From positions 918,619 through 982,618 of the forward strand of contig CAWDFY010000005.1 in assembly GCA_963801745.1 (NCBI GenBank): a stretch of 64,000 nucleotides of DNA, written 5' to 3'. Below, one piece after another: positions 25,773 through 42,345 of this stretch. Within the stretch, counting starts at the first letter, position 1, and each line of letters begins with the position of its first letter. This stretch comes from an uncultured Chloroflexia bacterium. Lineage in GTDB: Bacteria; Chloroflexota; Limnocylindria; Limnocylindrales; CSP1-4. The notes below the pieces were generated by a model. It saw nothing but the letters and a program-made list of their open reading frames with translations, did not search any database and was not told the origin of the DNA. Made by a program: the position numbers and the translations under genes.

Positions 25773-27197
25773 TCAGTAGATCGGTGTCTCGGGCCCGACG
25801 GCCTCGAGCCATGCCTTGATGTCGCGCAGGAGGGCGGCCCCACCGGCGCCGTCATTCGCGCGATGGTCGACGCCGAGGACCATGTTCATGACCGGACGGA
25901 TCGCGATGACGTCGCCGTCGGGTGTCGACTGGACGACCGGGCGCTTGGTGATCGCCTCCATCGTCACGATGCCGACCTCGGGCACGTTGAGGATCGGCAT
26001 CACGAGGTTGGTCCCGAGGTACCCGGTGTTGTCGACGGTGAACGTGCCGCCGCCGAAGTCGTCGAGACGCAGCTTGTTCGCGCGAGCCCGGTTGGCGACG
26101 TCGGTGATGGCGACGTTGAGACCGTGGATCGACAGTGTGTCGGCATCGCGGATGACCGGGACGAGCAGGCCGTCGTCGACCGCGACGGCAACGCCGATGT
26201 TGACGCGGCGCTTGGCTAGGAGGCCCCCCTCGGTCCAGTGCGCGTTGAACGTCGGATTGCGCTTCAGGGCCTCGGCCGACGCCTTGACGACGAACGGCAC
26301 GAAGCTCAGCGAGATGCCCTCCTTGGCCTGATATGCCCTCTTGGCACGCTCCCGGAGCGCGACCAGCCGGGTGGCATCGACCTCCATCTGGACATATGCG
26401 TGCGGTGCCTGGAGCGCCCGCGTCATCTGGGCCGCGATGCCCTTGCGCATCTGGGTCATCGGCAGGAGGACTTCGTCGCTGCCCTCGGGGAAGTCGACGG
26501 TCGCAGCGGTCGGGAGACCGGACCGGGGCTGTGCCGGTGCGGTCGGCGGGACTGCGGCTCCGTCGGGCTGGGCCTTCGGGGCCGGGGCGGGTTGCGCGGC
26601 CGGTGCGGGCGCCTCGCCGCCGGTCCGGATCCGTTCGACCACCGCCAGGACGTCGTCGCGAGTGATGCGGCCGCCGCCACCGGTCCCGACGATCTGCTCC
26701 GCGCTTAGGCCGTGCTCACGAAGGAGCCGGCGGACGGCGGGCGTCATCCGCGCGTCCGGGTCACCCTGGGCGGTGGGCAGGGCGGCCGTCGCGGCGGGGG
26801 CTGTGGCCGCGGGCTCGGCGGGCTTGACCGGCCTGGCTTCGGGCGCTGGTTCTTCAGCTGGAGGTGCCGCCTCGGCCTTGTCGTCGGGCGCGACCTCGGA
26901 CGCCTTCGCCTCGGCCGGCTTGGCCTCGGCGGGAGCGGACGCCCCGTTCGACGACCCTTCGTCGGCCGTCTCGATCACCGCGATCTCTGCGTTGTTCGGG
27001 ACGGTCGCGCCCTCCTCCGCCAGGATCTCCTTCAGGACGCCCTCGAACGGCGACGGCACCTCGGCGTTGACCTTGTCGGTGATGACCTCGAGGAGCGGCT
27101 CGTACTTGTCGACATGGTCGCCCGGCTGCTTGAGCCACTTTCCGATCGTCCCCTCAGCGACGCTCTCGCCGAGCTGGGGCATCGTCACCTTCGCCAC
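25773..27197 (-). CDS. dihydrolipoamide acyltransferase, E2 component of a 2-oxoacid dehydrogenase complex
   Basis: The lipoyl domain reads MAKVTMPQLGESVAEGTIGKWLK...EVITDKVNAEV. An Ala/Pro linker follows. Then a PSBD domain (TPAVRRLLREHGL) and a catalytic domain (...DHRANDGAGGAALL). Confidence 0.9.
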   Translation of the reverse strand: MAKVTMPQLGESVAEGTIGKWLKQPGDHVDKYEPLLEVITDKVNAEVPSPFEGVLKEILAEEGATVPNNAEIAVIETADEGSSNGASAPAEAKPAEAKASEVAPDDKAEAAPPAEEPAPEARPVKPAEPAATAPAATAALPTAQGDPDARMTPAVRRLLREHGLSAEQIVGTGGGGRITRDDVLAVVERIRTGGEAPAPAAQPAPAPKAQPDGAAVPPTAPAQPRSGLPTAATVDFPEGSDEVLLPMTQMRKGIAAQMTRALQAPHAYVQMEVDATRLVALRERAKRAYQAKEGISLSFVPFVVKASAEALKRNPTFNAHWTEGGLLAKRRVNIGVAVAVDDGLLVPVIRDADTLSIHGLNVAITDVANRARANKLRLDDFGGGTFTVDNTGYLGTNLVMPILNVPEVGIVTMEAITKRPVVQSTPDGDVIAIRPVMNMVLGVDHRANDGAGGAALLRDIKAWLEAVGPETPIY

Positions 27198-27356
27198 GTT
27201 CGCTGTTCCTCCGAGGATCGGGGCACGCGTCGGCGACTAGTGTCGCCCATCCGGGCGAGGTCGGTCGAGTGGCGGTGGTAGCGCTGGTGATGGCTGCGAG
27301 CGATCATTTTTCGCACTAACGGGTCTGCGGGCCCCTCGATCCGCCGATCGACGGCA

Positions 27357-27381
27357 GATCGATCGCCGCGCGCGATCGATC
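27357..27381. promoter_or_regulatory. 10-bp inverted repeat GATCGATCGC-cgcgc-GCGATCGATC in the divergent E2 / cNMP-transporter promoter region, within a cluster of CGATCG motifs
   Basis: Direct reading of 27330..27540 shows repeated cgatcg / gatcgat motifs and one 25-nt dyad. Coordinates are +/-2 nt. Confidence 0.35.
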
Positions 27382-27554
27382 CGTGGCCGAAGTGGCCCGC
27401 GAGTTGGCGGAACTGGAGCTTGGGCGCGAAAACGATCGCCGGCCGTTATCGCCAGGGGGCGAGGCGGCCGCGTCGCGGCGCCTGGGGCCGAAATCGATCC
27501 CTCACAGCGATCGACGCGCGCCGCGGCCACACCTCGCGGGTACGGTACGGAACG

Positions 27555-30344
27555 ATGGACGCCCTCCAGCGCATCCTCGGCATCCGGCCCGGCGAGGGGC
27601 GGATCGTGGCTGGCGTCGCGGCGCTGTTCGCGCTCCTCGAGGCGGCGCGCGGGTTCGGCGAGGTCGGGGCCGACTCGCTGGTCCTGGCCACGTATGGTCC
27701 GGACGCGCTCCCGACCACCCTGCCGTACCTGTTCATCGCGCTCGGGCTCGTCAGCCTCGCGGTCTCCCTCGCCTACTCGGTCGCCCTCGGGCGCCTGCCC
27801 CGGATCCCGCTCTTCCTGGGCGTGCTGCTCGGGATCGCGGCGCTGCTGATCCTGCTGCGGATCGGCCTGGCATCGGGAATCGGGGCCCTCGTGCCGGTCG
27901 TGTGGCTCATCGTGTTCGCGTCGACCGCCATCAACCTGACGATCGCATGGACCGTGAGCGGCGCAACGTTCGATGCCCGGCAGGCCAAGCGCCTCTTCCC
28001 GATGCTGACCGCCGCGGCGATCGGCGGGAGCTTCGTCGGCACGCTCGCCGCCGGGCCGGTCGCTGGGCTGATCGGGGTCGAGTCGCTGGTCGTGGTCCAG
28101 GCGCTGCTGCTCGCGGCCGCGGCCGTCCTGCTGGGCCGCCTGCCCCGGCGACCACGACGGTCGACTGCGGTGGTCGAGCCCACCTCCGTCATCGACGACC
28201 TGCGTGCCGGCTTCGACACCGTCATCCGCTCGCCGCTCATGCGTCTCGTGGCGCTCGCGTACGTCCTGCTGGCGGTGCTGATGTTCTCGCTCAACTACCC
28301 GTTCATGATCGCCGCCGCGCGTCAGTTCCCGAACGACGTCGAGCTCGCGACGGCGCTCGGGCTCCTGTCGGCCGCGATCACCGCGACCTCGTTCGTGATC
28401 TCGCTGGCCCTCGCCAACCGCATCTACGCGCGGTTTGGGATCTCCGCCGGGGCGCTGGCACTGCCGCTCGTGTACGCGGTCGGCTTTGCCGGCTGGCTGG
28501 TCCAGTTCTCGTTCGCGTCCGCGGCCGCGTTCCGGTACGCCCAACAGGCCACGCAGCGGGGCGTCTCGAATGCAGCATGGAGCGCGTTCTACAACGTCGT
28601 CCCCGCGTCGCGTCGGGCCCAGGCGCTGGCGTTCAATGACGGGGTCCCCGGCCAGGTCGGCACCGTGCTGTCCGGGCTCCTGCTGCTGGTGGTGGCGAAC
28701 CTCAGTGGCCTGGAGCCGGTCTTCTGGCTGGGGCTGGCGACGGCCGTCGTCGCCACGGCCATCGTGCTCGCGATCCGGCGGCGCTACGCCGACAGCCTCC
28801 TCGCCGCGCTCCGATCCGGCCTGGCCGAGCAGGTCCTCGAGGGGGGGCCGGGACTGCCATACGCGATCGACCGACCGGAGGAGCGCGCGGCGGTCGTGGC
28901 GATGCTGGATGCGGCCGAGCCGGCCACGCGCCGCCTCGCCACGTCGATCCTCGGACGGGCCGCGAACCTCCGCCCCGAGGACCGCGCCCGGCTGGTCGGT
29001 CTGCTCGACGACCCCGATCCCGCGGTCCGAGCCGAAGCCGCGGTCGCCGCATTGACGGATCACCCGGACGACGAGCACTCGAACGCGACGCTCGCTGCCC
29101 TGCTCCTGAGCACCGACGACGAGGCGCGTATCGCCGGTCTGGATGCGGCCGCCCGGATCCCCGAGTGCGTTCCATCCGAGCTCCTAGCGCCACTCCTGTC
29201 CGCGGAGCGACCGGCCGTGCGGGCGGCCGCGATCACGGCGGCAGCGGCCCGCCGCGACGCAACGCATGTCGCCCCGACGCCGGCGCTCATCGCCGCGCTC
29301 GACGATCCCGCACGTGTCGTCAGGTCCGCCTCCGCCGACGCGCTGGCGATCCGGCCCGGTGCAGGACCCGGTCTCATCGAGGTCCTGCGCGACGGGGGGC
29401 CCGACGCGATCGACGCCGCCCTCGCCGCGGTGGGCGGACACGCGTCCGACGTCGAGGACGACCTGCTCGGCTGGGCGCGTGGGCGGATCGAGCGGGCCGA
29501 GGACCTCCATCGGGCGCACACGTCGGTCGTGATGCTGGCCGGTCGGACCGAGACGCTCGATTTCCTCGACGCGGTCCTCGATCAGCGTGCCCGCGCCGCC
29601 GAGGACCGCGCGATCGCCGCCGTCGTGGCGGTCGGGGCACCATCGGCCGGTGGCCTGATGCGACGCTCGCTGCGTTCGTCAGACCAGGACGCCCGGGCGC
29701 AGGCCATCGAAGCGCTCGACTCGTTGGGAGGACGCGACCTCGGCCGCGCATTGACCGCGTGCCTCGAGGCGGTCGCCGACCGGCACGGCAGCGATCCACT
29801 GGCGACGCTCGTGGACCTGACGCAAGATGACGATCCGTGGATCGCGTCGCTGAGTCGGAGCGTCCGCGAGGAGATGAGCGGAAACGCAGCGGATGAGAGG
29901 TCGATGTCGGGTCAGGACGGCGCCGCGAGCGAGCTCGAGACGATGCTGCTCTTGCGTCGCGTCCCGCTGTTCGCCGGCCTCGAGCCGGAGGACCTCCAGC
30001 GCGTCGCCGCCGTCGCCGTCGAACGCGAGTACCCGTCGGGCGTCGCGCTCATGCGCGAGGGTGACCTCGGCGACGAGCTGATCGTCCTCGTCGATGGCTC
30101 GGTGCGGGTCGTCCAGGCCGGACCGAACGGCGAGGAGCGGTTCATCCGGCGGTACGAGGCGGGCGAGCACATCGGCGAGCTCGCCGTGCTGCGCGACCGG
30201 CCTCGGATCGCCACGGTGATCGCCGAGGGCGAGGTCCGCGGCCTCGTGCTCGGTGGGGACGGTCTTCGGGCGATCCTGCGCGAGCGTCCCGAGGCGGCCA
30301 TGGCGATGCTCGCCACGCTCGCGGAGCGCATCTCCAGCCAGTAG
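27555..30344 (+). CDS. 12-TM transporter domain (MFS / ADP-ATP-translocase-like) fused to HEAT repeats and a C-terminal cyclic-nucleotide-binding (CNB) domain
   Basis: The ATG is at 27555. About 12 hydrophobic helices span residues 1-440. HEAT-like repeats follow (DPDPAVRAEAAVAAL, ERPAVRAAAITAAA, DDPARVVRSASADALA). The CNB domain reads LLRRVPLFAGLEPEDL...GDELIVLVDGSVRV...GEHIGELAVL...RIATVIAEGEVRGLVL. Confidence 0.8.
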   Translation: MDALQRILGIRPGEGRIVAGVAALFALLEAARGFGEVGADSLVLATYGPDALPTTLPYLFIALGLVSLAVSLAYSVALGRLPRIPLFLGVLLGIAALLILLRIGLASGIGALVPVVWLIVFASTAINLTIAWTVSGATFDARQAKRLFPMLTAAAIGGSFVGTLAAGPVAGLIGVESLVVVQALLLAAAAVLLGRLPRRPRRSTAVVEPTSVIDDLRAGFDTVIRSPLMRLVALAYVLLAVLMFSLNYPFMIAAARQFPNDVELATALGLLSAAITATSFVISLALANRIYARFGISAGALALPLVYAVGFAGWLVQFSFASAAAFRYAQQATQRGVSNAAWSAFYNVVPASRRAQALAFNDGVPGQVGTVLSGLLLLVVANLSGLEPVFWLGLATAVVATAIVLAIRRRYADSLLAALRSGLAEQVLEGGPGLPYAIDRPEERAAVVAMLDAAEPATRRLATSILGRAANLRPEDRARLVGLLDDPDPAVRAEAAVAALTDHPDDEHSNATLAALLLSTDDEARIAGLDAAARIPECVPSELLAPLLSAERPAVRAAAITAAAARRDATHVAPTPALIAALDDPARVVRSASADALAIRPGAGPGLIEVLRDGGPDAIDAALAAVGGHASDVEDDLLGWARGRIERAEDLHRAHTSVVMLAGRTETLDFLDAVLDQRARAAEDRAIAAVVAVGAPSAGGLMRRSLRSSDQDARAQAIEALDSLGGRDLGRALTACLEAVADRHGSDPLATLVDLTQDDDPWIASLSRSVREEMSGNAADERSMSGQDGAASELETMLLLRRVPLFAGLEPEDLQRVAAVAVEREYPSGVALMREGDLGDELIVLVDGSVRVVQAGPNGEERFIRRYEAGEHIGELAVLRDRPRIATVIAEGEVRGLVLGGDGLRAILRERPEAAMAMLATLAERISSQ

Positions 30345-30353
30345 AGTCGGGTC

Positions 30354-32988
30354 GTGGTCGAGAGCGACATCACCGACCGGACGCTGCCGACCGGCACCGT
30401 CACGTTCCTCCGGACCGATGTCGAGGGCTCGATGGCCCTCAGCCGAGCCCTCGGGTCGCGCTGGGACGCGCTGAACGACCGGCACCTCGGGCTCATCCGC
30501 GGGGCGGTCGACGCGGCCGGCGGGGTGGTCGTCCGGACCGAGGGGGACGCCGTCTTCGCGGCCTTCCAGGAAGCCGGTGCCGGCGTCCGGGCGGCCATCG
30601 AGGCGCAACGGGCCCTCGTCGAGGCCGACTGGCCGGCGGACGCGCAGATCCGCGTCCGGATGGGTCTCCACAGCGGCGAGGCGCACCTGGCCGGCGACGA
30701 CTACGGCGGTTTCGACGTCAATCGGGCAGCGCGCGTCGCTGCCACCGGTCACGGCGGCCAGATCATCCTCAGCTCCACGACCCGCGGTCTGGTCGAGTCG
30801 TCACTGCCGGATGGCGTGGACCTCCGCGACCTCGGACGGCATGCGTTGCGCGACCTGCCGCAACCCGAGCAGCTGTTCCAGCTCGACGTGCCAGGCCTTC
30901 GAACGGCATTCCCGGCGCTGCGCACCGCCATGCCGACCATCGGTGATCTGCCATCGCGGATGACCAGCTTCGTCGGTCGCGAGGCCGAGCTCGATGAGCT
31001 ACGCGAGCTGCTGGGCGAGCAGCGGCTGGTGACGCTGACCGGTCCTGGCGGGATCGGCAAGACGAGCCTGGCCGTAGAGACGGCGCGCTCCGTGGCCCAC
31101 CGCTTTGCCGACGGGGCGTGGTTCGTGCCGCTCGCCCAGGTCGACGAGCCGTCGATCGTAGCCTCGGTCATCGCCCGCACGATCGGCCTGTTCGACGGAC
31201 CCGCGAGGCCCGCCAGAGATGCCCTCGGCCCCTACCTCGCCGAGCGGTCGGTCCTGCTCGTGCTCGACAACTTCGAGCGCCTGCTCGACGCGTCGAGCGA
31301 TGTCGCCGACATCCTCCGCGCGTCATCAGCTTCGAGGATCCTGTTGACCAGCCGGGCGCCACTGCGGATCCCAGGCGAGCAGGAGTATCCGGTCAGGCCG
31401 CTGGTCGAAGCCTGCCCGACGCTGTTCGTGGAGCGCGCACGAGCGGTCAAACCTGGCTGGGAGCCCGGGGCCGAAGCAGCAGTCCTCGATGACGTGTGCT
31501 CCCTGCTCGACGGGCTGCCGCTCGGGGTCGAGCTGGCAGCGGCCCGCGTCGCGCACCTACCGGTGACCGCCATCCGGGACCGCCTGGCTGCGCGCTTGCC
31601 GCTCCCGGGTGCGGGCCCGCGCGATGTGCCGGACCGGCAGCGCACGCTGGCGGCCGCCTTCGAGTGGAGCCACGACATGCTCTCGACCGGATCGCAGCAT
31701 GTCCTGCACGATCTGGCCGTATTCGAAGGTGGGTTCGACCTCGACCAGGCCACGCAGGTGGTTCAGCCGACCGATGACGGCGTCGACGTGCTCGATCACC
31801 TCGTGGCGCTCGTCGACCAGAGCCTCGTCAAGCGCGATGCGGAGGACTCGGTCGGATCCGGGATCCGCTTCCGGCTGCTCGCGACGATCCGTGGCTTCGC
31901 GCTCGAGCGACTTGACGGCGAGGGCCGATCGGAGGAGGCCCGGCGGCGGCACGCCGTCGCGTACCTCGCGCTGGCCGAACAGGCGGCGCCGACGATGCCG
32001 GGACCAAACCAGCCGCGGTGGCTAGCGCGCCTGACCATCGACTACGACAACATCCGCGCGGCGATCCGATGGACCATCGACGCCGGTGAGGTCGAGCTCG
32101 CGTTGCGGTTCGTGGCCGCGATGTGGCGCTATTGGCAGCAGGATGGCCATCTTGTCGAAGGCGCCGACCTGGCGGAGGCGGCGCTTGCGATGCCCGGTGC
32201 CGATGCCACGACGGAGCATCGGCTTGCTGCCGTCACGGCGGCGGGTGGGATCGCGTACTGGCAGAACCGGCGAGCGGACGCGCTCGGGTGGTACGAGGAG
32301 GAGCTCGCGGTCGCACGCCGGCTCGGACACGTGGCAGGCGAGGCGGACGCCCTCTGGAACCTGGCCTACGGACGATATGTCGCCGAGGATACGTCGGGTG
32401 CGGAGGAGCTCCTGCGACGGTCTCGTCGGCTGTTCGAGCAAGTCGGTGACGAGCGAGCGATCGCGCGTGTCGATTGGTCGATAGCGACGCTGCTTGGCGC
32501 GATCGCGATGAGTCGGGAACAACTGCCAGTGTTCGAGTCTCTGCTGGACAGAATTCGAGCGCCTCGGCGACCCGTGGTACGCCTCTCAAGCGAAGTCCAG
32601 CATCGCCTGGGTGCTGTTCATGACCGGCGACCTGCCCGGCGCCAGTCGCTGGTACATCCGCGGGCTGACGACGGCGCTTGGCCTTCGAGACCTTACCGGG
32701 GCGACCATCTCGCTCGAGGTCGCGGCTGTGGTGGCCGCGGAAGCCGGGCGGCCCGAGGAGGGTGCGGCGATGATGGGGGCGTCCGAGCACCTTCGCGAGC
32801 TGTACGGGGTGGAGCCACCACAGGGTTTGCAGGAGCTCATCGGACAGGCGTCGCCGCGCGAGCGTCTCGTGGCGCTGCTCCTCCCGGACCGCTTCGCGGC
32901 CTCGTTCGACCGCGGCCGGCAGATGACGATCGATGAGGCGGTCGCCCTGATCATCCGGGTCCAGGACGAGACCTGGGGTGGCGCTTGA
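30354..32988 (+). CDS. class III nucleotidyl (adenylyl/guanylyl) cyclase + NB-ARC/AAA ATPase + TPR (STAND) protein, copy 1; frameshift near 32552
   Basis: The cyclase domain reads TVTFLRTDVEGSMALS...RTEGDAVFAAF...RVRMGLHSGEAHLAGDDYGGFDVNRAARVAATGHGGQII. Walker A is LTGPGGIGKTSLA. The C-terminal 125 aa (ORF 32611..32988) is homologous to the end of copy 2 but lies in a different frame. The gene begins 10 nt after the CNB-transporter stop. Confidence 0.75.
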
Positions 32989-35633
32989 CACACGCAGGTA
33001 CCGACCGGACGCTGCCGACCGGCACCGTCACGTTCCTCCGGACCGATGTCGAGGGCTCCATGGCCCTCAGCCGAGCCCTCGGGTCGCGCTGGGACGCGCT
33101 GAACGACCGGCACCTCGGGCTCATCCGCTCGGCGGTCGACGCGGCCGGCGGGGTGGTCGTCCGGACCGAGGGGGACGCCGTCTTCGCGGCCTTCCAGGAA
33201 GCCGGTGCCGGCGTCCGGGCGGCCATCGAGGCGCAACGGGCCCTCGTCGAGGCCGACTGGCCGGCGGACGCGCAGATCCGCGTCCGGATGGGTCTCCACA
33301 GCGGCGAGGCGCACCTGGCCGGCGACGACTACGGCGGTTTCGACGTCAATCGGGCAGCGCGCGTCGCTGCCACCGGGCACGGCGGCCAGATCCTTCTGTC
33401 GGGCGCATCGCAGGCGCTCGTCGCCGACGCACTGCCCGACGGCGTCACGCTGCGCGACCTTGGCACGTACGTGCTGCGCGACGTGCCGCGCCCGGAGCGG
33501 CTGTTCCAGGCCGACGCCTCCGGCCTGCCGACAGCGTTCCCGCCGCCGCGCGCCGGTCGGGTCGAGATCGGCAACCTCGACGATCGACTCACGACGTTCG
33601 TCGGTCGGGACGAGCCCGTCCGAGAGCTGCGGGAGCTCCTCGGGACGTCACGGCTGGTGACGCTCACCGGGGCGGGCGGCATCGGCAAGTCGAGTCTCGC
33701 GTTGGAGACAGCTCGGGCAGCCCAGGAGGGGTTCGCCGACGGGGCGTGGTTCGTCCCGCTTGCGACCATCGATGGGACCGAGGAGGTGCTGCCTCTCGTC
33801 GCCCGGACGCTCGGGCTGTACGACGGTTCGGCGAGCTCGGCTGCCGACACGCTTCCGCGCTTCATGGCCGATCGCTCGCTCTTACTCCTCCTCGACAACT
33901 TCGAGCACGTCGTCGATGCGGCGCCGGTCGTGGCGAACCTCGTCCGGTGGTCGTCTCGATCGCGAGTCCTGGTCACGAGTCGGACGCCACTGCGTCTCGC
34001 CGCCGAGCAGGAATATCCGGTCGCCCCGCTCACGGTCGAGGCAGGTGCAGACGTGAGTCCGCCCGACGGCGACACTCCCGCTCGACGATTGTTCGTGGAT
34101 CGGGCTCGGGCCGTCCGTCCAGGCTGGGATCCCGGGACGGAGATCTCGGTCGTGGACGAGATCTGCCGGCTCGTCGACGGCCTGCCGCTCGGGATCGAGC
34201 TGGCCGCCGCCCGAGTGGCGCTGCTGCCGCTCGGCGCGATCCGTGATCGCCTGGCCGCGTCGCTACCGCTGCCCGGCGCCGGGTCCCGCGACGCTCCAGC
34301 GCGCCAGCGGACGCTTGAGGCCACCGTCGAGTGGAGCCACGGCCTGCTGAGCCCCGATCTCCAACGCGCACTGCACCGGTTCTCGGTATTCGAGGGCGGC
34401 GCGGATGTCGACCAGGCCCAGGACGTGTTGGTGGATCACGGCGCCGCCGACGACGTCCTCGACCGACTCGTCGAGCTCGCCGAACGAAGCCTGCTCGAGC
34501 GCGACCCCTCGCCGCTCGGCATCCGATTCCGGATGCTCCGAACGATCCAGACCTTCGCCGAGGTGAGACTCGAGCACGACGATGACGAAACGGCGGTCCG
34601 CCGCCGGCACGCCCAGACCTTCCTGGATCTCGCCCGGCAAGCGCAACGAGACGAGGGCACGGCTGCACAGGTCCCCTGGATCGAGCGCCTGTCGATCGAC
34701 GATGCCAACCTTCGCGCGGCGATCCGTTGGGCGATCGACCACGACGCGCGTCTTGCGCTCGCACTCGTGGCGGCCGCCTGGCGGTTCTGGCAGACCGACG
34801 GCCATCTCACCGAGGGCCGCACGCTCGCCGACCGGGCCCTCGCGTTGCCCGATGCCGCCGCCCCGACGGTCGAGCGGATGTGGGCGGTGGGTGCCGCGGG
34901 GAGCATCGCATACTGGCAAGCCGACTCAGAGACGGCACAACGTCGCTACGAAGAGCAGGTCGCCCTGGCCCGGGCGCTCGACGACGAGCGGGGCATCGCC
35001 GACGCCCTCTTCAACCTCGCCCATACGGAGTTCATCCATCTGGCCGATGCGGAAGCGGCGCACGTCCTGCTCGATGACGTCGTCTCGCGATACCGGGATC
35101 TGGGCGACGAGCGCGGGGTAGTCCGGGCGGAGTGGGCGGCCAGCAACGTGCTCCTCGACGAGCACCGGACCGAGGAGGCGACGGCCTTGATGCAGCGGCT
35201 GCTGCTCGAGTTCGAGCGACTCGGCGACACGCAGTATCACGCGATGGCGCTCGGGAGCCTGTCCTGGGCGGCATTCATGGCCGGGGACACGCAGGATTCG
35301 ATCGGCTACGCCGCGGGTGCGCTGCGCGAGTCGTACGACATGCGCGACCTCGGGACCACGACGATCTCGATGCATGTCGGCGTCCTGATCGCGCTGATCA
35401 CCGGGCGACCGGAGGTGGCTGCACGGCTGACCGGTGTCTTCGACGCCGCGAGCGAGCGCTATGGCGTCAGGCCGCCGGCCGCGCTGGACCGGTTCCTCGC
35501 CGACCAAGATCCGTTCAGCGCGGCCCGGGAAGCGCTCACGCCCGAGCGATGGGAGATCGAATACGCGGCGGGCCGCCGGATGAGCCTGGGTGAGGCCGTG
35601 GACGTCGTGGAGTCCATGGCCCCGACCCGCTGA
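32985..35633 (+). CDS. class III nucleotidyl cyclase + NB-ARC/AAA ATPase + TPR (STAND) protein, copy 2 (intact)
   Basis: The N-terminal 150 aa are near-identical to copy 1 at the protein and DNA level. Walker A is LTGAGGIGKSSLA. The C-terminus is a TPR-like helical region. The TTG start overlaps the copy-1 stop (TTGA). Confidence 0.85.
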   Translation: MTHAGTDRTLPTGTVTFLRTDVEGSMALSRALGSRWDALNDRHLGLIRSAVDAAGGVVVRTEGDAVFAAFQEAGAGVRAAIEAQRALVEADWPADAQIRVRMGLHSGEAHLAGDDYGGFDVNRAARVAATGHGGQILLSGASQALVADALPDGVTLRDLGTYVLRDVPRPERLFQADASGLPTAFPPPRAGRVEIGNLDDRLTTFVGRDEPVRELRELLGTSRLVTLTGAGGIGKSSLALETARAAQEGFADGAWFVPLATIDGTEEVLPLVARTLGLYDGSASSAADTLPRFMADRSLLLLLDNFEHVVDAAPVVANLVRWSSRSRVLVTSRTPLRLAAEQEYPVAPLTVEAGADVSPPDGDTPARRLFVDRARAVRPGWDPGTEISVVDEICRLVDGLPLGIELAAARVALLPLGAIRDRLAASLPLPGAGSRDAPARQRTLEATVEWSHGLLSPDLQRALHRFSVFEGGADVDQAQDVLVDHGAADDVLDRLVELAERSLLERDPSPLGIRFRMLRTIQTFAEVRLEHDDDETAVRRRHAQTFLDLARQAQRDEGTAAQVPWIERLSIDDANLRAAIRWAIDHDARLALALVAAAWRFWQTDGHLTEGRTLADRALALPDAAAPTVERMWAVGAAGSIAYWQADSETAQRRYEEQVALARALDDERGIADALFNLAHTEFIHLADAEAAHVLLDDVVSRYRDLGDERGVVRAEWAASNVLLDEHRTEEATALMQRLLLEFERLGDTQYHAMALGSLSWAAFMAGDTQDSIGYAAGALRESYDMRDLGTTTISMHVGVLIALITGRPEVAARLTGVFDAASERYGVRPPAALDRFLADQDPFSAAREALTPERWEIEYAAGRRMSLGEAVDVVESMAPTR

Positions 35634-35649
35634 CCACCGAGATCCTGAT

Positions 35650-36615
35650 TCAGCTCGGGTCGATCCCCCAGTCGACGAAGTACTCGTTGTCGTTCGGCGT
35701 GTTCGTGACCTGGACGAGGTCCGACCCGTCGAGCGCCATCGTGTAGATATCGGCGTTGTCGGACGTGCCGACGGCCATGTTGAACACAAGCCGGGAACCG
35801 TCAGGCGAGAACGTCGGTGCGTTCCCCCAATTGTGGTCCGGGGGAAGGTCGATCATCCGTAGGTCGGACCCGTCGGGTCGCACGAGGATGAACCGGGTCT
35901 CGGTGTACGGCACCAAGGCGCGACCGGCGGCCAGCCACTGGCCGTCGCGCGACCAGCTCACCTCGTTGCCGACCGGGTCGGGGATGACCTGGTGTGCCGC
36001 ACCGGTGTTCACGTCGGCGACCCAGATCGTACCGGTGTCCTCACCCGCATCGCCACGCACGAAGGCGAGCTGCCGGCCGTCCGGCGAGAAGTCACCGGGG
36101 ATGTCGTTGCCGCCTTGGCCGTTCGTCGTCAGCCGGGTCGGGCCCGAACCGTCGGCGGCGTTGGCGAGGAAGATCCCGTTGCGGGACGTGTCCTGATCGT
36201 TCCATCCTTCGGACGCGAGCCGGCGCCCGTCGGGGGACCATGTCGAGCAGCCGAGCGTCACGCCGTCGCCCGTGTTCGGGAACGCGGTCTGGCCCGATCC
36301 GTCGACGTTGATGGTCCCGAAGCCCACGGACAGACGGCGACCGTCCGGCGAGAACTGCGGGCATTCGTTCGGACCAGGGATGACCACGTGGACGTCCGAC
36401 CCATCCGGGCGAGCGATATGGACGACTGTGTCATCGACGGCTGCGGAGAAACGGCCGAAGACGATCGGGCCGTTCTGGACCGGGATCGGTGTCAGTCGCC
36501 AGCCGCCGACCGTGAGGCCGACGGCGACGATGGCGATCAGCAACGCGAGGACGAGGAGGAACGCCCAGACCGGTGCGATGTGCATCCGGCCGAACGAGCG
36601 TGCAGTGGTAGTCAT
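35650..36615 (-). CDS. TolB-like / PD40 WD40 beta-propeller protein with N-terminal TM anchor
   Basis: AGGAG lies 8 nt before the ATG at 36615. The TM helix is MHIAPVWAFLLVLALLIAIVAVGLTV. PD40 repeats recur (FSPDGRRL, WSPDGRRLA, FSPDGRQLAF, WSRDGQWLA, FSPDGSRLVF). Confidence 0.7.
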   Translation of the reverse strand: MTTTARSFGRMHIAPVWAFLLVLALLIAIVAVGLTVGGWRLTPIPVQNGPIVFGRFSAAVDDTVVHIARPDGSDVHVVIPGPNECPQFSPDGRRLSVGFGTINVDGSGQTAFPNTGDGVTLGCSTWSPDGRRLASEGWNDQDTSRNGIFLANAADGSGPTRLTTNGQGGNDIPGDFSPDGRQLAFVRGDAGEDTGTIWVADVNTGAAHQVIPDPVGNEVSWSRDGQWLAAGRALVPYTETRFILVRPDGSDLRMIDLPPDHNWGNAPTFSPDGSRLVFNMAVGTSDNADIYTMALDGSDLVQVTNTPNDNEYFVDWGIDPS

Positions 36616-36768
36616 CGGATGGCTCCTGAGGGACGCCAGCCAGACCGGCTGCTGCCGGCGACCGGCAGTCGTGTCGAGGATCGCGTTCGACCTGGCCATC
36701 CACGATGGTTCGGTCGGCGGTGATCTCGAGATGGGCGCGGAGGATCAGCTCGACGTCTCGCTGTGCGT

Positions 36769-37322
36769 TCATGTCGGGCGCTCCGCTGGACGTGCGATGG
36801 GCCGATCAGCCGCGTCGACGCTGGCCCGCAGGGCCGCGAGGGCGCGGTGGATCCGGGACTTCATCGGCCGGTCGGGATGCCAAGGACTGATGCTGCCTCG
36901 GCGACCGGGAGGTCGAGGTAGTAGATCAATACGAGCACAGTCCGCTGATCGAGCGTGAGACCCTGGAGGCCGCGCTCGATCTGGTCGGTGACCGCGAAAG
37001 TCGATTGAAGGTCGGCGCCGTCAGGATGGTCGGTCGACTGGAGGGGCAGCTCGACGACGCGCCGGCGGGCCCGCCGGCGCGAGTCCTGACAGGATCTGAC
37101 GAGGAGACGAGTCAGCCAGGCTTGGAACTTGTCGGGCTCACGCAGCCCGGGAAGACTCCGCCACGCGTCGACGAAGGCGTCCTGGACCGCGTCCTCGGCG
37201 AGGCCATAGTCGCGAAGGATCAGCCGCGCGATCGCGTTGAGCCGGCCGATCGAATCCGCGACGAGGCGCGCGAAGGCGTCATGATCGCCTTCCCTCGCCA
37301 GGATCACGAGATCTCGATCCAT
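36769..37322 (-). CDS. ECF (sigma-70 family) RNA polymerase sigma factor with 1-nt frameshift near 36862
   Basis: Region 2 reads DAVQDAFVDAWRSLPG...FQAWLTRLL. Region 4 reads LTLDQRTVLVLIYYLDLPVAEAASVLGIPTG. The ORF then stops. The next frame reads MKSRIHRALAALRASVDAADRPIARPAERPT*, the canonical region-4 end. The indel is in accggccgatg. Confidence 0.7.
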
Positions 37323-37368
37323 CCTTGCCGCCTGACCTGACGCGGATATCTTCCGCGCTCGACGTGTA

Positions 37369-37396
37369 TGTCCGTCGCGGTCTGGGGTTTGGTTCC
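37369..37396 (-). promoter_or_regulatory. candidate autoregulated ECF-type promoter (GGAAC -35 ... CGAC -10-like) upstream of the sigma factor gene
   Basis: The minus-strand sequence reads tatGGAACcaaaccccagaccgCGACggaca, about 60 nt upstream of the sigma ATG. The match is weak. Confidence 0.2.
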
Positions 37397-37554
37397 ATAT
37401 TCGTCGCCGCGACTCGACCTACCCCTCCGTCTCCGGCGTCGGCCAAAACCTGCCATATGTTCATCAGGCGCACACAGGACAGAGTTCCGTGCGCGGCCGC
37501 GGGAGGGAGACGCATCTCGGACGAACGGTGCACAGATGGCAGGAAGCCGGGCCG

Positions 37555-38340
37555 TCAGTCGGGTCGGCCGGCCATCAACTCGCGCATCGCGGCCAGCTCG
37601 GATCGGATCTGCGCGAGCTCGACCTCCAGGCGCGAGGTCGCCTCCGCGGTCGCCGCTGTGTCGTCGTCATCGTCCGGCACCAGCACGCTGGCCAGGATGC
37701 TGGCGAGCGACCCGATGATCCCGACGCCAGCGAACATCACGAACACGGCGGTCACTCGACCGAGGGTGGTCACCGGGAACGCGTCCCCGTAGCCCACCGT
37801 CGTGATCGTCGCGAGTCCCCACCACAGCGCGTCGCCGCCGGTGGTGATGTTCGCGTCGGGTGAGCGAACCTCGAACTGGAGAATGAGCACGGACGATGCG
37901 GACAGGACGATGAACGCCGAGAGGAACGTGATGAACAGGGCGTACTTACTCCGGTTCTCGATGACGTCGCGCATGATCGAGCTCTGGTCCTTCGCCCGCA
38001 TCAGGCGGAGGATCCGCGCGACGCGGCCGAGGCGGGCCAGGCGGAACAGCACGGTCAACCGGAACATCCCCAGGCTGGGGATCGAGCCGAGCAGGTCCAG
38101 CCAGCCGCCGCCGCTGATGAAGTACTCGCGCCTCGAACGGGACCGCGCGATGTTCATCGCGAAGTCAACCAGGAAGATCACGCAGATCACATTGTCGAAG
38201 ACCGACAGTGCCGTGAGGGTCGCGTCATCGAGCGGGAGCAGCAGTAGCGCCATGATGACCAGCGACTGGATCGTCAGGACCAGGATGAAGATGTCGTAGG
38301 CGTTGCTGTGCTGCGGCACGGCGCGAGTGTCGGCGGTCAC
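37555..38340 (-). CDS. voltage-gated potassium channel (6-TM, Kv/KvAP-like)
   Basis: The S4 voltage sensor reads RLTVLFRLARLGRVARILRLMR. The pore selectivity filter is TTVGYGD. S1-S6 hydrophobic helices are present. The acidic C-tail is DDDDD. Confidence 0.85.
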   Translation of the reverse strand: MTADTRAVPQHSNAYDIFILVLTIQSLVIMALLLLPLDDATLTALSVFDNVICVIFLVDFAMNIARSRSRREYFISGGGWLDLLGSIPSLGMFRLTVLFRLARLGRVARILRLMRAKDQSSIMRDVIENRSKYALFITFLSAFIVLSASSVLILQFEVRSPDANITTGGDALWWGLATITTVGYGDAFPVTTLGRVTAVFVMFAGVGIIGSLASILASVLVPDDDDDTAATAEATSRLEVELAQIRSELAAMRELMAGRPD

Positions 38341-38467
38341 CCAGAAGCCTCCCTTCCCCGGCGGATACAGCTCCGCCGATCCCTCTTATGCCCGGCCATC
38401 CTGGGTAGATCGATCCCGGATCGCGCGGCCCGGTGGATCGTAGCGGCGCCACCGCTCCTGGCGTGTC

Positions 38468-38878
38468 TTAGGTGCGCGCCGCCTTGTGACCGCCCTCGGC
38501 TCGGCGCGCGGCGCCCCAGCCCGGATCGCCCGCGGTCGCTGCGTAGCCACGGTTGGTGAGGTCCTCGAGCTCCGACAGCAGCACCTCGTCGACCTTCGCG
38601 AAGTTGAAGCACGACTTGCCCTGCATGCGCTTGCGGAGCGCTGGCGACACGTCGTCGAGCAGGTCCGGCTTCGCGTACACCGGCATCAGGTAGTAGCTGA
38701 CGTAGCGCTTGCCGACCCGCGTCGCGCCGAACCACGTCGACGGGTCGCGCTCGGCCTCGGGCGCCATGTCGACGCCGAACCACTGCGGCGAGTCGGCGGA
38801 GACGTACATCTCCCTGGCGTACGGCGCGAGCATCCCCTTGAACCGCTCGAACAGCTGGCCGAACTCGGCCTCCGACAT
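38468..38878 (-). CDS. DUF1801 (YdhG-like) domain protein
   Basis: 136 aa with protein-like composition. It lies 14 nt downstream of the E1beta stop. Confidence 0.55.
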   Translation of the reverse strand: MSEAEFGQLFERFKGMLAPYAREMYVSADSPQWFGVDMAPEAERDPSTWFGATRVGKRYVSYYLMPVYAKPDLLDDVSPALRKRMQGKSCFNFAKVDEVLLSELEDLTNRGYAATAGDPGWGAARRAEGGHKAART

Positions 38879-38892
38879 GGTGGATCCCCTTC

Positions 38893-39876
38893 TCAGTAGG
38901 CCGCCAGCTTGCGGATCGCGTCGGCGATCTTGTCGGGGCTGACCATGAACCAGTCCTCAAGGACGTGGTTGTACGGCACACCGGGCACCTCAGGGCCGGC
39001 GATCCGGGTGACCGGGCCGTCGAGGTAATCGAAGGCCTCCTCCGCGACGAGTGCCGCGACCTCGGCGCCGTATCCCCCGAAGCGGTTGTCCTCGTAGACG
39101 ACGAGGCACTTGCCGGTCTTGCGCACCGACTCGAGGACGGTCTCGGTGTCGAGCGGGCGGAGTGTGCGCAGGTCGACCACCTCGACGCTGATGCCCTCCT
39201 CGGCGACCCGATCGGCGGCCTCCAGCGCGTAGTGCGCCATCAGCCCGTAGGCGAACACCGAGATCTGCGTCCCTGGGTGGGTGATCGCCGCCTTGCCGAG
39301 CGGGACCGTGTAATCGGTGTCGGGGACGTCACCGCGCACTGAGCGATACATCTTCTTGTGCTCGAAGAACAGCACGGGGTCGTCGTCGCGGATCGACGAG
39401 CGAAGCAGGCCGCGCGCGTCGTATGGCGTGGACGGGACCACGACCTTGAGCCCCGGAACGTGGGTGAAGAAGCCCTCGACGCTCTGCGAGTGGTACAACG
39501 CGCCGTGAACGCCGCCGCCGTATGGCGCCCGGACGACCATGGGCACGCCGTAGCCGTTGTTCGAGCGGTAGCGCATCCGGGCCGCCTCTGACACGAGCTG
39601 GTTGAACGCGGGAAAGATGAAGTCCGCGAACTGGATCTCGGCGACCGGCCGCAGCCCATTGACCGCCGCGCCGATCGACGCACCCACGATCATCGACTCG
39701 GACAGCGGCGTGTCGATGACGCGGTCGTCGCCGAACTCCGCCCACAGCCCGTCGGTCGCCAGGAACACGCCGCCCTTCTTGCCGACGTCCTCGCCGAGCA
39801 CGATGACCGACTCGTCACGCCGCATCTCGTCGGCGAGCGTCTCTCGGATGGCGTCGATGAAGGTCCGCGCCGGCAT
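38893..39876 (-). CDS. 2-oxoacid (branched-chain keto acid / pyruvate) dehydrogenase E1 component beta subunit
   Basis: Full-length transketolase-like E1beta: ...EIQFADFIFPAFNQLVSEAA...VVRAPYGGGVHGALYHSQS... Confidence 0.9.
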   Translation of the reverse strand: MPARTFIDAIRETLADEMRRDESVIVLGEDVGKKGGVFLATDGLWAEFGDDRVIDTPLSESMIVGASIGAAVNGLRPVAEIQFADFIFPAFNQLVSEAARMRYRSNNGYGVPMVVRAPYGGGVHGALYHSQSVEGFFTHVPGLKVVVPSTPYDARGLLRSSIRDDDPVLFFEHKKMYRSVRGDVPDTDYTVPLGKAAITHPGTQISVFAYGLMAHYALEAADRVAEEGISVEVVDLRTLRPLDTETVLESVRKTGKCLVVYEDNRFGGYGAEVAALVAEEAFDYLDGPVTRIAGPEVPGVPYNHVLEDWFMVSPDKIADAIRKLAAY

Positions 39877-40895
39877 CAGTCGACGTCCTCGGCGTAGACG
39901 TACCGGGTGGCCGTGGCCGGGTCGGGGTCGGGCTGCGCCTCCGCGTAGTCGGTCGCCTCGTCGACGGTCGCCTTGATGTCGCTACCGACCCGGTCCTCGA
40001 TCTCGTCGGTCAGGACGCCGCCGTCGCGGAGCTGGGCGCGGAATACCGGCACCGGGTCGAGCTCGCGCTCGGCCGCCAGCTCCTCCTCGGAGCGGTACTT
40101 CGTCTGCTGGTCGTCGGACGAGTGCGCGGTCAGGCGGTGGACCTTGGCCTCGATGAGCGTCGGGCCGTCGCCGGCGCGAGCCCTGGCGATCGCGTCGCGC
40201 GCGGCGACGTAGCAGGCCAGCACGTCGTTGCCGTCGACCACGACGCCCGGGATGCCGTAGCCCGGGGCGCGGTCGGCGACGTTGGGCACCGAGACCTGGC
40301 GCGCGGCCGGGACGCTGATGGCGTAGCCGTTGTTCTCGACCACGAACACGAACGGCAGCTTGTGGATGGCCGCGAAGTTCAGGCCCTCGTGGACGTCGCC
40401 CTGGTTGCTGCTGCCCTCGCCCATCGTCGTCATCGCGACCTGACCGGTCTTGCGGATCTTGGCCGCCAGCGCGATCCCGACGGCGTGGAGCAGCTGGGTC
40501 GCGACCGGCGACGAGACCGACACGAGGTTGTGCTCGTGCGACCCGTAGTGGCCGGGCATCTGGCGACCGCCGGATGACGGGTCGTTTGCGGTCGCGTACT
40601 GGGCCGTCAGGATGTCGCGCGGGCTCATTCCGAATGTCAGGCACGTGGCGATCGACCGGTAGAACGGGGCGATCCAGTCGTGGCCCTTCTGGAGCGGCCA
40701 GGTGATGCCGACCTGGGCGCCCTCGTGGCCCTGGCCCGAGATCACGAACGGGATGCGGCCCGCCCGGTTGAGGATCCACATCCGCTCGTCGAGCGCGCGC
40801 GCCAGCGCGACGTAGCGGTACATCTCGACGAGGTCGCCGTCGACCAGGCCGACGCTGGCCGCGAGCCCCGTCTCGCGTTCCTTCGCCACGGCCAT
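39876..40895 (-). CDS. 2-oxoacid dehydrogenase E1 component alpha subunit (TPP-dependent)
   Basis: The sequence reads ...MGEGSSNQGDVHEGLNFAAIHKLPFVFVVENNGYAIS...GYGIPGVVVDGNDV. The start was taken at the ATG at 40895. Upstream ORF-track residues are junk. Confidence 0.8.
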   Translation of the reverse strand: MAVAKERETGLAASVGLVDGDLVEMYRYVALARALDERMWILNRAGRIPFVISGQGHEGAQVGITWPLQKGHDWIAPFYRSIATCLTFGMSPRDILTAQYATANDPSSGGRQMPGHYGSHEHNLVSVSSPVATQLLHAVGIALAAKIRKTGQVAMTTMGEGSSNQGDVHEGLNFAAIHKLPFVFVVENNGYAISVPAARQVSVPNVADRAPGYGIPGVVVDGNDVLACYVAARDAIARARAGDGPTLIEAKVHRLTAHSSDDQQTKYRSEEELAAERELDPVPVFRAQLRDGGVLTDEIEDRVGSDIKATVDEATDYAEAQPDPDPATATRYVYAEDVD

Positions 40896-40902
40896 CGGTC
40901 GA

Positions 40903-42345
40903 TCAGAAGTTGATCGAGCGCCCGTCGACGGCCATCGCCGCCTCGCCGATGACCTCCGATAGCGTCGGATGGGCGTGGGTCGCGCCGCCGATCTCCCACG
41001 CGGTCGCGTCGAGCTCGAAGGCCAGCGACGCCTCGGCGATGAGGTCCGTGGCATGCGGACCGACGACGTGGATGCCGAGCGTGTCGTCGTTCTCGGTGCT
41101 CGAGATGACCTTGGCGAAGCCCTCGTACTCGCCGCCGATGATCGCCTTGGCGATGGCCTGGAACGGTACCTTGCCGACCTTGTACGGCGTGCCGGCGGCC
41201 TTGACCTGTTCCTCGGTCAGGCCGATCGAGGCGATCTCGGGACGGCAGTACGTCGCACGCGGCTGGCTGGCGTAGTCGATCTCATGGACGTCGCTCTCGC
41301 CGGCGATGACATGGGCGGCGGTGATGCCCTCGTGGGCGGCCGTGTGGGCCAGCCACAGCCCGCCGACGATGTCTCCGATCGCGTAGACGTGCGGCTCCCT
41401 GGTCCGCATCCGCCCGTTGACCTTGATGATGCCCTTGTCCGTCTCGACCTTCGTCGTCTCGAGGCCGATGTCCTCGATGTTGGCGGCGCGACCGGTGGCG
41501 ACGAGCATGATCTCGGCGCGGACCTCGCCCTGGTCCTTGCCATCCGGCCCGACCATCAGACAGATGCCGTCCTTCTCGACGCTCACCTTGGCGGGGTCGA
41601 AGCGTGCGTTGGTCATCACCGTCATCCCGCGCTTCTCGAAGCTGCGCTGGACGACACGGCTCACCTCGGCGTCCTCGAGCGGGACGATCTGGGGCAGGTA
41701 CTCAAGCACCGTCACCGCGACACCCATGTCCGCATAGAAGCTGGCGAACTCGACGCCGACCGCACCGGCTCCGACGATCACCACGTCCTTCGGCAGCGCC
41801 TCGGCCTTGAGGACGTCGTCGCTGGTCACGATGCGCTTGCCGTCGGGCGTCAGACCCGGCAGCGACTTGACCCGCGAGCCGGTCGCGAGGATCACGTCGG
41901 TCGCCTGGAGGACCCGCTCGCCACCCTTGCCCGGTGCGCCATCCTCACCTGGCTGGCTGACGCGGATCTTGTTCGGGCCGTCCAGCCGGCCGCGGCCCTC
42001 GACCCACGTCACCTTGTTCTTGGTGACCAGTGACTTCACGCCCGTCCACATCCGCTTGACGACCGCGTCGCGCCGGGCGGCGATGGCGGGGTAGTCGATC
42101 TCGGGCTCACCCGGCAGGATCAGGCCGTAGTCCTTCGCGTGGCGGACCTTCTCGGTGAAGGCCGCCGACTCGAGCAGGGCCTTGGTCGGGATGCAGCCGC
42201 GGTGGAGGCACGTCCCGCCGATCTTGTCCTCGTCGACGAGCGCCACCTTGAGCCCGAGCTGGGCGGCGCGGAAGGCCGCCGTGTAGCCGCCGGTGCCGGC
42301 ACCGAGGACGACGACGTCGAAGTCGTTGGACGAGCCGACGGCCAT
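40903..42345 (-). CDS. lpd: dihydrolipoyl dehydrogenase (E3)
   Basis: The FAD site is GAGTGGY. The redox-active disulfide is GGTCLHRGCIPTK. The second nucleotide-binding site is GAGAVGVEFA. The C-terminal HAHPTLSE is present. Confidence 0.9.
   Translation of the reverse strand: MAVGSSNDFDVVVLGAGTGGYTAAFRAAQLGLKVALVDEDKIGGTCLHRGCIPTKALLESAAFTEKVRHAKDYGLILPGEPEIDYPAIAARRDAVVKRMWTGVKSLVTKNKVTWVEGRGRLDGPNKIRVSQPGEDGAPGKGGERVLQATDVILATGSRVKSLPGLTPDGKRIVTSDDVLKAEALPKDVVIVGAGAVGVEFASFYADMGVAVTVLEYLPQIVPLEDAEVSRVVQRSFEKRGMTVMTNARFDPAKVSVEKDGICLMVGPDGKDQGEVRAEIMLVATGRAANIEDIGLETTKVETDKGIIKVNGRMRTREPHVYAIGDIVGGLWLAHTAAHEGITAAHVIAGESDVHEIDYASQPRATYCRPEIASIGLTEEQVKAAGTPYKVGKVPFQAIAKAIIGGEYEGFAKVISSTENDDTLGIHVVGPHATDLIAEASLAFELDATAWEIGGATHAHPTLSEVIGEAAMAVDGRSINF

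Follow-up and report, generated by a model that had tools for sequence, protein, structure and literature searches.

The genes for the E1 and E2 components of a 2-oxoacid dehydrogenase complex lie on either side of an 11.7 kb block in a 64,000-nucleotide stretch of DNA (the window) from an uncultured Chloroflexia bacterium, which raises the question of what this block is and how it came to its place. The initial annotation counted seven genes between E2 and E1beta, as the seven open reading frames (ORFs) listed in Table 1 bear out, and read the block as an accessory insertion carrying one signalling system, in which cyclases produce a cyclic nucleotide, a transporter reads it through its cyclic nucleotide-binding domain (cNBD), and a propeller protein, a sigma factor and a Kv channel take part. 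In the present analysis, gene order was taken from the ORF listing, an analysis of G+C at third codon positions (GC3) and Pfam and NCBIfam scans of the window, which has a G+C content of ~71%. The explanation favoured here, with a probability of about 0.6, is that an old operon of a cNBD-transporter gene and a cyclase-STAND gene sits at a likely boundary between two other operons, where further cargo has been added later.

A gene pair at a fixed site

Related loci (designated L below) were gathered by context look-ups and by a scan of one genome per species and mapped by tblastn, which gave 80 distinct loci with a relative of the transporter. A cyclase-STAND gene adjoins the transporter gene on the same strand in 66 of the 80, downstream in 61 and upstream in 5, so that the co-occurrence search proposed by the initial annotation comes out in favour of the pairing; 4-nt overlaps of the two genes are frequent where ORFs were called. 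The order E2 (minus), transporter and cyclase-STAND (both plus), zero to four further genes and E1beta (minus) recurs in 46 of the 80 loci, across which the identity of the transporter to that of the window falls from 94% to ~44%. No further gene separates cyclase and E1beta in 17 of these 46, for example in L020 (OY970306.1). Pairwise identity of the transporters tracks that of E2, E1alpha and lpd (Mantel r = 0.80, a value reached by 0 of 2000 permutations), and such co-divergence of transporter and flanks is what vertical co-inheritance predicts.

A second sample, collected via E1beta homologues and thereby independent of the presence of the transporter, reached the same clade only within its best 120 matches. 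It added one more carrier (L085) and two pair-less genomes (L084 and L086/L087), in which the gap holds an HTH_31 gene and a 500-aa protein without a Pfam match, respectively. In a tree of the flank proteins, the pair-less L084 and L086 nest among carriers, and losses are therefore the simplest explanation for them.

The composition of the block does not set it apart. Its genes have a G+C content of 0.66-0.73 and a GC3 of 0.79-0.95, with no shift relative to the flanks either per gene or in sliding windows; the exceptions in GC3 are two genes at ~0.80, namely cyclase 1 with its frameshifted tail and the sigma ORF, which is short and frameshifted. No tRNA genes and no boundary repeats were found at the block, where the only repeats found are internal to the two cyclase paralogues, and the Pfam scan detected no integrase domain among the block's gene products.

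The boundary next to E2 carries a signal of its own. A 17-nt motif, TAGTGTCGCCCATCCGG, at positions 27238-27254 of the window, lies 40-60 nt upstream of the E2 start across loci (~41 nt in the window) and is found, with at most 2 mismatches, once per locus and always beside E2 in 41 related loci plus the window. Since the motif is present in the pair-less L084, and also in L065 and L078, where the transporter is 9 kb and 3 kb away from E2, it tracks E2 and is probably a promoter, operator or leader element of that gene. It suggests that E2, epimerase and lipA form their own transcription unit throughout the clade, and, seen from this motif, the junction between E1beta (with its small ORF) and E2 looks like an old inter-operon boundary. 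Other searches for regulatory elements were negative: no locus has the CRP-type operator TGTGA-N6-TCACA within 3 mismatches in the E2/transporter intergenic region, Rfam (E <= 1) gave no matches over 22000-44000, and a consensus scan for sigma-70 promoters and terminators found none above the shuffled expectation. The E2/transporter intergenic region itself (27198-27554) is 357 nt long in the window, ~418 nt in L001 and L006, while many of the other relatives have 95-250 nt; the additional sequence seems rich in GATC-containing runs such as GATCGATCG.

These observations bear directly on the proposal of a recent accessory island, in which cyclases, cNBD transporter, Kv channel, extracytoplasmic function (ECF) sigma factor and propeller would have arrived as one integrated signalling system and split a contiguous E1-E2 operon. 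The patchy occurrence of the propeller, sigma and Kv genes among relatives agrees with it, as does the turnover of cargo in the E1beta-E2 gap, which holds the HTH_31 gene in L084, the 500-aa protein in L086 and a Na/H exchanger in L002. The core pair, however, occupies the site in 46 loci and diverges together with the flanks, E2 keeps its own upstream motif in L084, the one pair-less genome in which the motif was found, and the Kv gene has a homologue in just 2 related loci. A recent genomic island is contradicted for the core pair by its composition, by the lack of tRNA genes, boundary repeats and an integrase at the block, and by the use of the same site in all these loci; for the block as a whole, the island is very improbable. 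The initial annotation had itself suggested a comparison of gene order in relatives and of GC and codon usage with the flanks, and both comparisons speak against the insertion that it proposed, with order conserved for the core pair and composition unshifted.

Pairs of the same kind also occur elsewhere, in both gene orders, and form separate clades in the transporter tree; their neighbours include ABC exporters, EamA, malate synthase, MMPL and a Crp-family regulator. Near one such paralogous pair lies the gene of a Crp-family cNMP-binding transcription factor (L050:8230-8970), with an EamA transporter gene in between, and another pair follows an integrase (rve) gene and the gene of an AAA_16-TPR-LuxR STAND regulator (L033:2474-7265). 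More distant relatives of the transporter (31-37% identity; Acidimicrobiia and Anaerolineae) are mostly without an adjacent cyclase. Among them, a related cyclase gene stands on the opposite strand, no more than a few kb away, in L056 and L058; in L059 a weak cyclase-domain match lies on the same strand, 1.5 kb downstream. A decay variant is L082, in which E2 and cyclase are separated by a gap of 1.3 kb (L082:9090-10418), of which only ~0.4 kb (10001-10378) matches the cNBD part of the transporter.

As part of the favoured explanation, and at its strength, the core pair would be a two-gene operon that is ancestral to the sampled Limnocylindria, has been inherited vertically and acts as a functional unit.

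The transporter

The first gene of the pair encodes a protein of 929 aa, from a start that agrees with that of its homologues. It is composed of a 12-helix NTT/TLC-like MFS domain (residues ~1-430), a HEAT-repeat region (~440-760) and a cNBD (~815-929). Pfam detects cNMP_binding with 2.6e-18 (66.2 bits, cut-off 27.5), HEAT_2 with 1.5e-11 and HEAT with 8.2e-5, and the HEAT region strongly matches the alphaRep HEAT proteins in the PDB. The phosphate-binding cassette of the cNBD, GELAV...RPRAATV, is intact and is invariant or nearly so in alignments of 17 and 45 sequences. The best PDB matches of this domain are the cNBDs of PKA and PKG, and we take its cassette to resemble the cAMP type found in PKA, not the Thr-containing cGMP type.

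The membrane domain is more divergent. An AlphaFold2 model of it (pLDDT 82.5, pTM 0.82) has about twelve long helices, and a Foldseek search of this model against the PDB ranks the Arabidopsis ATP/ADP translocator AtNTT1 first (9j3m_A, E = 1.5e-7). When a profile of 30 family members was compared with 177,635 PDB sequences, only AtNTT1 (1.4e-6) and NTT1 of C. pneumoniae (3.6e-5) matched, and Pfam TLC (PF03219) matches 12 of the 30 members, with 2.3e-7 at best. The family is of moderate size, with 493 clusters at 50% identity (E <= 1e-30). By profile and predicted fold, the protein thus probably fits the NTT-HEAT-cNBD fusion architecture, with a candidate NTT-like membrane domain, and by analogy with NTTs a nucleotide or some related phosphorylated molecule is its presumed substrate.

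The cyclase-STAND genes

Both cyclase proteins exceed the Pfam cut-offs for Guanylate_cyc (24.1 bits in copy 1 and 23.4 in copy 2; cut-off 21.9) and NB-ARC (25.6 and 27.3 bits; cut-off 23.5), and AAA_16 is detected as well. The Walker A motif reads GPGGIGKT in copy 1 and GAGGIGKS in copy 2. TPR_12 stays below threshold in both (17-19 bits against 30.1), and the NCBIfam models AfsR, FxSxx_TPR and HaaT cover the NTPase and the helical region. The Pfam scan of the two proteins found no C-terminal LuxR-type helix-turn-helix (HTH) domain, and they end in TPR-like repeats; HTH_77 is recorded in orthologues. Such domain content is expected where a class III cyclase is joined to a STAND NTPase (NB-ARC) and a TPR-type sensor, and both proteins are assigned to this kind by sequence.

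The nearest solved relative of the cyclase domain is the M. avium cyclase Ma1120 (E = 1.7e-21), and the cyclase region of the NCBIfam model LipJ matches the two domains with 3.3e-18 and 9e-16. The catalytic motifs FLRTD, EGD and VNRAAR are present. About 75 homologues preserve both metal-binding Asp residues, the Asn and Arg of the transition state and the Asp that contacts the base: among 84 aligned cyclase domains the catalytic positions are Asp in 76 and 74, Asn in 63 (Ser or His in 12) and Arg in 76. From the pair of residues that specifies adenine, the base-contacting Asp is kept in 73 of the 84 domains, and the position of the Lys is taken by Gly in a paralogous cyclase group. The product of the enzyme is probably cAMP, as far as the active-site residues indicate.

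The two copies in the window are ~60% identical in protein sequence outside the cyclase domain. A 393-nt tract (30372-30764 against 33000-33392, in a register of 2628) is 99% identical, with four mismatches, spans exactly the cyclase domain, and has sharp edges, with identity dropping to 52-74% immediately after it. A tract of this kind amid paralogues of ~60% identity indicates gene conversion between the two genes. Two adjacent copies are found only in the window, L006 and L079, and L001 has a single, recombinant cyclase gene. Copy 1 looks like the counterpart of the single gene of the relatives; the stretch just past its cyclase domain closely matches the single copy of L002, as judged by eye only. 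The second cyclase gene is best described, from these alignments, as a lineage-specific tandem duplicate, shared by the window and L006, whose cyclase domain has been homogenised with that of copy 1 by gene conversion.

A proposed signalling route for the pair

The favoured explanation builds on what the sequences show, namely which domains the two proteins contain, their catalytic and binding motifs, the operon-like adjacency of the genes and their vertical inheritance together with the flanks. Under it, a ligand or protein partner would bind the TPR/STAND part of the cyclase protein and cause its nucleotide-dependent oligomerisation. Oligomerisation would join the cyclase domains, which are active only as dimers, and a cyclic nucleotide would be made, most likely cAMP if the catalytic residues are a guide. 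The messenger would then bind the PKA-like cNBD, and the HEAT arm would switch transport by the NTT-like domain. The idea of the initial annotation that the cyclase produces what the cNBD reads is supported by the sequences, since the catalytic residues and the cNBD cassette are preserved and the two genes stay together in either order and in unrelated neighbourhoods.

Several observations weigh against this explanation. The divergence of the cyclase correlates weakly with that of the transporter (Spearman 0.42), and in L038, another decay variant, the transporter is kept while the cyclase gene has shrunk to a remnant of 140 nt (L038:12734-13893). In the dehydrogenase-linked group, the adenine-specifying Lys is replaced by Arg (VRTEGD, against VKSQGD of Ma1120), which makes the Lys/Asp pair non-canonical and cAMP no more than the probable product. 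The window transporter has no match to Pfam TLC even at E <= 10, its only hit to the membrane domain being a weak one to MFS_1 (18.8 bits), and in the Foldseek search generic MFS transporters score close behind AtNTT1. Finally, cyclase copy 1 is frameshifted in the window, and copy 1 of L006 also lacks one full-length frame (longest ORFs of 608, 469 and 233 codons); this gene may be decaying or mis-assembled.

The last point leads to the possibility that the module has partly decayed here, with cyclase copy 1 and the sigma gene as pseudogenes and only the transporter and copy 2 functional. The coordinates given by the initial annotation for its gene models agree with the ORFs of the window, but each of these two genes is interrupted by a frameshift. 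In copy 1 it lies near 32510-32550, with a GC3 dip at 32200-32800, and a tblastn alignment with paralogue 2 goes on in frame 1 from 32551. In the sigma gene the shift occurs near 36865, and the final 30 codons occupy a different frame, with the stop at 36769-36771. Beside these frameshifts and the broken copy in L006, the single recombinant gene of L001 is compatible with decay. On the other side, split genes are also seen in related loci from long-read metagenome-assembled genomes (MAGs), in L003 (E2, sigma, propeller and cyclase) and L004 (E1beta and lpd), L001 has a fused E1alpha-E1beta call, and indel errors in high-GC assemblies typically give this pattern. Once corrected, the frame of copy 1 stops at 32986-32988 and overlaps the beginning of copy 2 by 4 nt, a preserved coupling signal, and its downstream frame still encodes a recognisable homologous C-terminus. 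Decay is accordingly given some weight, although it is the less probable account of these two genes.

Another question is whether the pair serves the dehydrogenase beside which it stands, for example as a cAMP-gated carrier of a nucleotide-type cofactor or energy carrier (ATP/ADP, NAD or a CoA precursor) that follows the metabolic state sensed by the STAND cyclase. The slot in the cluster has been kept across deep divergence while other cargo of the gap turned over, a paralogous pair divergently adjoins an lpd-E2 pair in L035 and L076, and NTT relatives carry ATP/ADP and NAD, according to passages of a study of that family (PMC5381601). Retention may nevertheless be inertia, as synteny extends over the entire neighbourhood of 20 kb that runs from acyl-CoA dehydrogenase to PlsY. 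Other paralogous pairs stand beside the exporter, EamA, malate synthase and MMPL genes named above, L084 and L086 have lost the pair and kept the dehydrogenase genes, and the pair is divergent from E2, which alone is tracked by the conserved motif. A functional tie to the dehydrogenase is thus rather unlikely. Its most specific form would be a dedicated circuit, in which a metabolic signal at the STAND/TPR part leads via cAMP to the gated exchange of ATP/ADP, NAD, a CoA-related compound or cAMP itself, and this is more doubtful again.

The layout of the pair also recalls anti-phage systems such as Pycsar and Avs, in which case the STAND part would sense infection, the cyclase would signal, and the cNBD membrane protein would kill or arrest the cell. 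Pycsar has the same two-gene layout, with a nucleotide cyclase beside a cNBD membrane protein, STAND NTPases are generally known as common phage sensors, and the cNBD of the transporter matches the cNBD part of the PycTIR model with 1.6e-9. This match, and that to TIR-effector models, covers residues 815-927 only, a generic cNBD, and neither cyclase-STAND is matched by a PycC or Avs model of PADLOC. Unlike Pycsar effectors, the membrane protein has a predicted full 12-helix transporter fold with HEAT repeats and is not a short pore-forming protein, and, unlike defence islands, the pair has been passed on vertically in dozens of species at one fixed housekeeping site. A role in defence is therefore highly unlikely, and the operon of a cyclase and a cNBD transporter is preferred as a regulatory pair.

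Probable later additions to the gap

Three genes that the initial annotation had included in one system, those of the propeller, the sigma factor and the Kv channel, do not share the distribution of the core pair, and their membership of one system is not supported. Propeller and sigma genes are found in ~10 related loci, always together, and a Kv homologue occurs only in L001 and L006. As part of the favoured explanation, and again at its strength, the propeller/sigma pair and the Kv gene would be later, lineage-restricted additions to a permissive gap.

The propeller protein (PD40, 6.7e-18) has a short N-terminus in the cytoplasm and a single transmembrane helix, followed by an extracytoplasmic TolB-like propeller. 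Its layout together with the sigma gene resembles that of a sigma factor with a membrane-anchored partner; no anti-sigma domain was detected in the propeller protein. The sigma gene product contains Sigma70_r2 and r4_2 (Pfam) and has SigE-family NCBIfam matches. An intact orthologue of 184 aa from L001 aligns to two frames of the window, and the copy of L006 is intact, too. The Kv protein matches Ion_trans (3.2e-22) and Ion_trans_2, and has six helices, a TTVGYGD filter and an arginine-ladder S4 (RLARLGRVARILRLMR); from these features the gene is predicted to encode a genuine voltage-gated-type K+ channel.

The small ORF that precedes E1beta on the map was named DUF1801 in the initial annotation. 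Whereas the domain calls for the other six genes hold in the profile searches, this one stays below threshold in Pfam (E = 0.037, with 14.9 bits where the cut-off is 27.2) and reaches only E = 0.053 against a bona fide DUF1801 protein, and it was rejected. The small ORF was found in 23 loci by tblastn and is homologous (E = 9e-19) to an ORF that follows E1beta in the pair-less L086. Because it has the same position after E1beta there, it belongs to the tail of the lpd-E1alpha-E1beta operon and not to the block.

Flanking genes and host lineage

The coordinates of the block and its neighbours are collected in Table 1. Domain scans confirm the identities that the initial annotation gave to E2, E1beta, E1alpha, lpd, lipA and the epimerase. 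The right flank, lpd-E1alpha-E1beta (38893..42345, minus), encodes a 2-oxoacid dehydrogenase of the PDH/BCKDH type, and the SucB/PDH-type NCBIfam matches of E2 are all under their equivalog cut-offs. E1beta passes NF006667, the NCBIfam model of a pyruvate dehydrogenase E1beta subfamily, with 332.6 bits (cut-off 321), whereas its orthologues are named 2-oxoisovalerate dehydrogenase E1 beta by JGI, two names that point to different substrates of the complex. E1beta is highly conserved, with 88-97% identity over the best 120 database matches; among related loci its mean pairwise identity is 0.91, against 0.55 for the transporter. Adenosine deaminase is a constant neighbour, in the same position in ~45 loci. 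It is possibly a nucleotide-metabolism neighbour of the nucleotide-transporter-like gene, or simply part of the conserved synteny.

Table 1. Genes of the block and its flanks, with positions in the window.
Feature	Position	Strand	Remarks
Acyl-CoA dehydrogenase	19471-20634	-	
Adenosine deaminase	21431-23008	-	
lipA	from 23258	-	Radical_SAM + LIAS_N
149-aa ORF	24325-24774	-	
NAD-dependent epimerase	24764-25855	-	Call confirmed
E2 dihydrolipoyl acyltransferase	25773-27197	-	Biotin_lipoyl, E3_binding, 2-oxoacid_dh (1e-69); heads E2-epimerase-lipA; left flank
MFS-like + HEAT + cNMP-binding protein	27555-30344	+	
Cyclase/NB-ARC/TPR protein 1	30354-32936 as read; 30354-32988 with frame corrected	+	
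Cyclase/NB-ARC/TPR protein 2	32985-35633	+	Intact
Membrane-anchored PD40 propeller	35650-36699	-	
ECF sigma factor	36861-37322 as read; 36769-37322 with frame corrected	-	
Kv-type channel	37555-38340	-	
136-aa small ORF	38468-38878	-	
E1beta	38893-39876	-	Transket_pyr + Transketolase_C
E1alpha	from 39876	-	E1_dh
lpd	40903-42345	-	Pyr_redox_2 + Pyr_redox_dim
PlsY	42293-43189	+	

The loci of the relatives come from MAGs of uncultured Chloroflexia or Candidatus Limnocylindrales, and the best homologues of the transporter that bear a name belong to Candidatus Limnocylindrales or Chloroflexota. By taxonomy look-up these names fall within Chloroflexota, class Candidatus Limnocylindria, to which the lineage is therefore assigned, and the actinobacteria, with which the initial annotation had compared the gene order, are not the appropriate frame of reference. 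The loci closest to the window are L006 and L001, with ~93% DNA identity. One contig (ENA contig_122920, 151,212 nt) contains both L001 (61931-84720) and L002 (100954-123746, reversed), which are two diverged, inverted copies of the whole 20 kb neighbourhood, with transporters 95% and 74% identical to that of the window. This double neighbourhood either reflects a genuine segmental duplication or comes from an assembly that joined two strains into a chimera.

Relation to known systems

Cyclase-STAND proteins are of a known kind. The mycobacterial class III cyclase-ATPase proteins Rv0386, Rv1358 and Rv2488c reportedly fall within the STAND NTPases. In the manner of the Rv0386 type, the window proteins have an N-terminal class III cyclase with an LPxGTVTFL..D.EGS start, a P-loop NB-ARC/AAA_16 domain and helical repeats, and share with it the replacement of canonical substrate-specifying residues, the nearest solved domain being that of Ma1120. 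Unlike proteins of the Rv0386 type, the cyclase-STAND of the window ends in TPR-like repeats without a LuxR-type HTH, and its operon partner is a cNBD transporter.

A precedent for a cNBD on a secondary transporter, and not on a channel or kinase, is SLC9C1 (PMC6052114). This Na+/H+ exchanger of eukaryotes has a voltage sensor, and its transporter fold is unrelated, so that homology to the protein described here is limited to the cNBD. Closer to it are the NTT-HEAT-cNBD fusions described by Major, Embley & Williams 2017 in Genome Biol Evol (PMC5381601), which, in the available passages, have what appears to be the same three-part architecture: NTT/TLC, HEAT (PF13646 and PF02985) and PF00027. 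According to the same passages, NTT-HEAT(-cNBD) proteins are widespread, in free-living bacteria including cyanobacteria, in Chlamydiae and in oomycetes, none of them with a known substrate or regulator, and it was speculated that cAMP from an adenylate cyclase tunes transport. In comparison with these fusions, the membrane domain of the window protein is divergent, missed by Pfam TLC and linked to NTTs by profile and fold only. Those passages mention Chloroflexi for a non-fused NTT clade only and place no fusions in Chloroflexota, and they contain neither a dedicated cyclase partner gene nor a dehydrogenase context. No characterised member of the fusion family turned up in the literature searched.

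The initial annotation did not recognise the combination as a described system. This is right for the operonic pairing of a cyclase-STAND with a cNBD transporter and for its fixed place in a dehydrogenase cluster, no description of which was found in the literature searched, but not for the components, each of which is of a known kind; the conserved pairing is what appears to be new.

For annotation, the locus teaches that what appears to be an island splitting an operon can be an ancient arrangement at a likely inter-operon boundary, here in an abundant soil lineage, and that such a boundary also gathers variable cargo. For STAND-fused cyclases in general, the fusion of a cyclase that requires dimerisation to an NTPase that oligomerises on ligand binding suggests a switch-on logic. 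If the circuit serving the dehydrogenase were true, the NTT-HEAT(-cNBD) family would gain a regulator and a physiological role, in both cases its first. For this orphan family, the cyclase-STAND partner, which in Limnocylindria is co-inherited with the transporter and often translationally coupled to it, provides a candidate regulator, and the cAMP speculation of 2017 (passages of PMC5381601) thereby becomes a concrete, cloneable and testable hypothesis.

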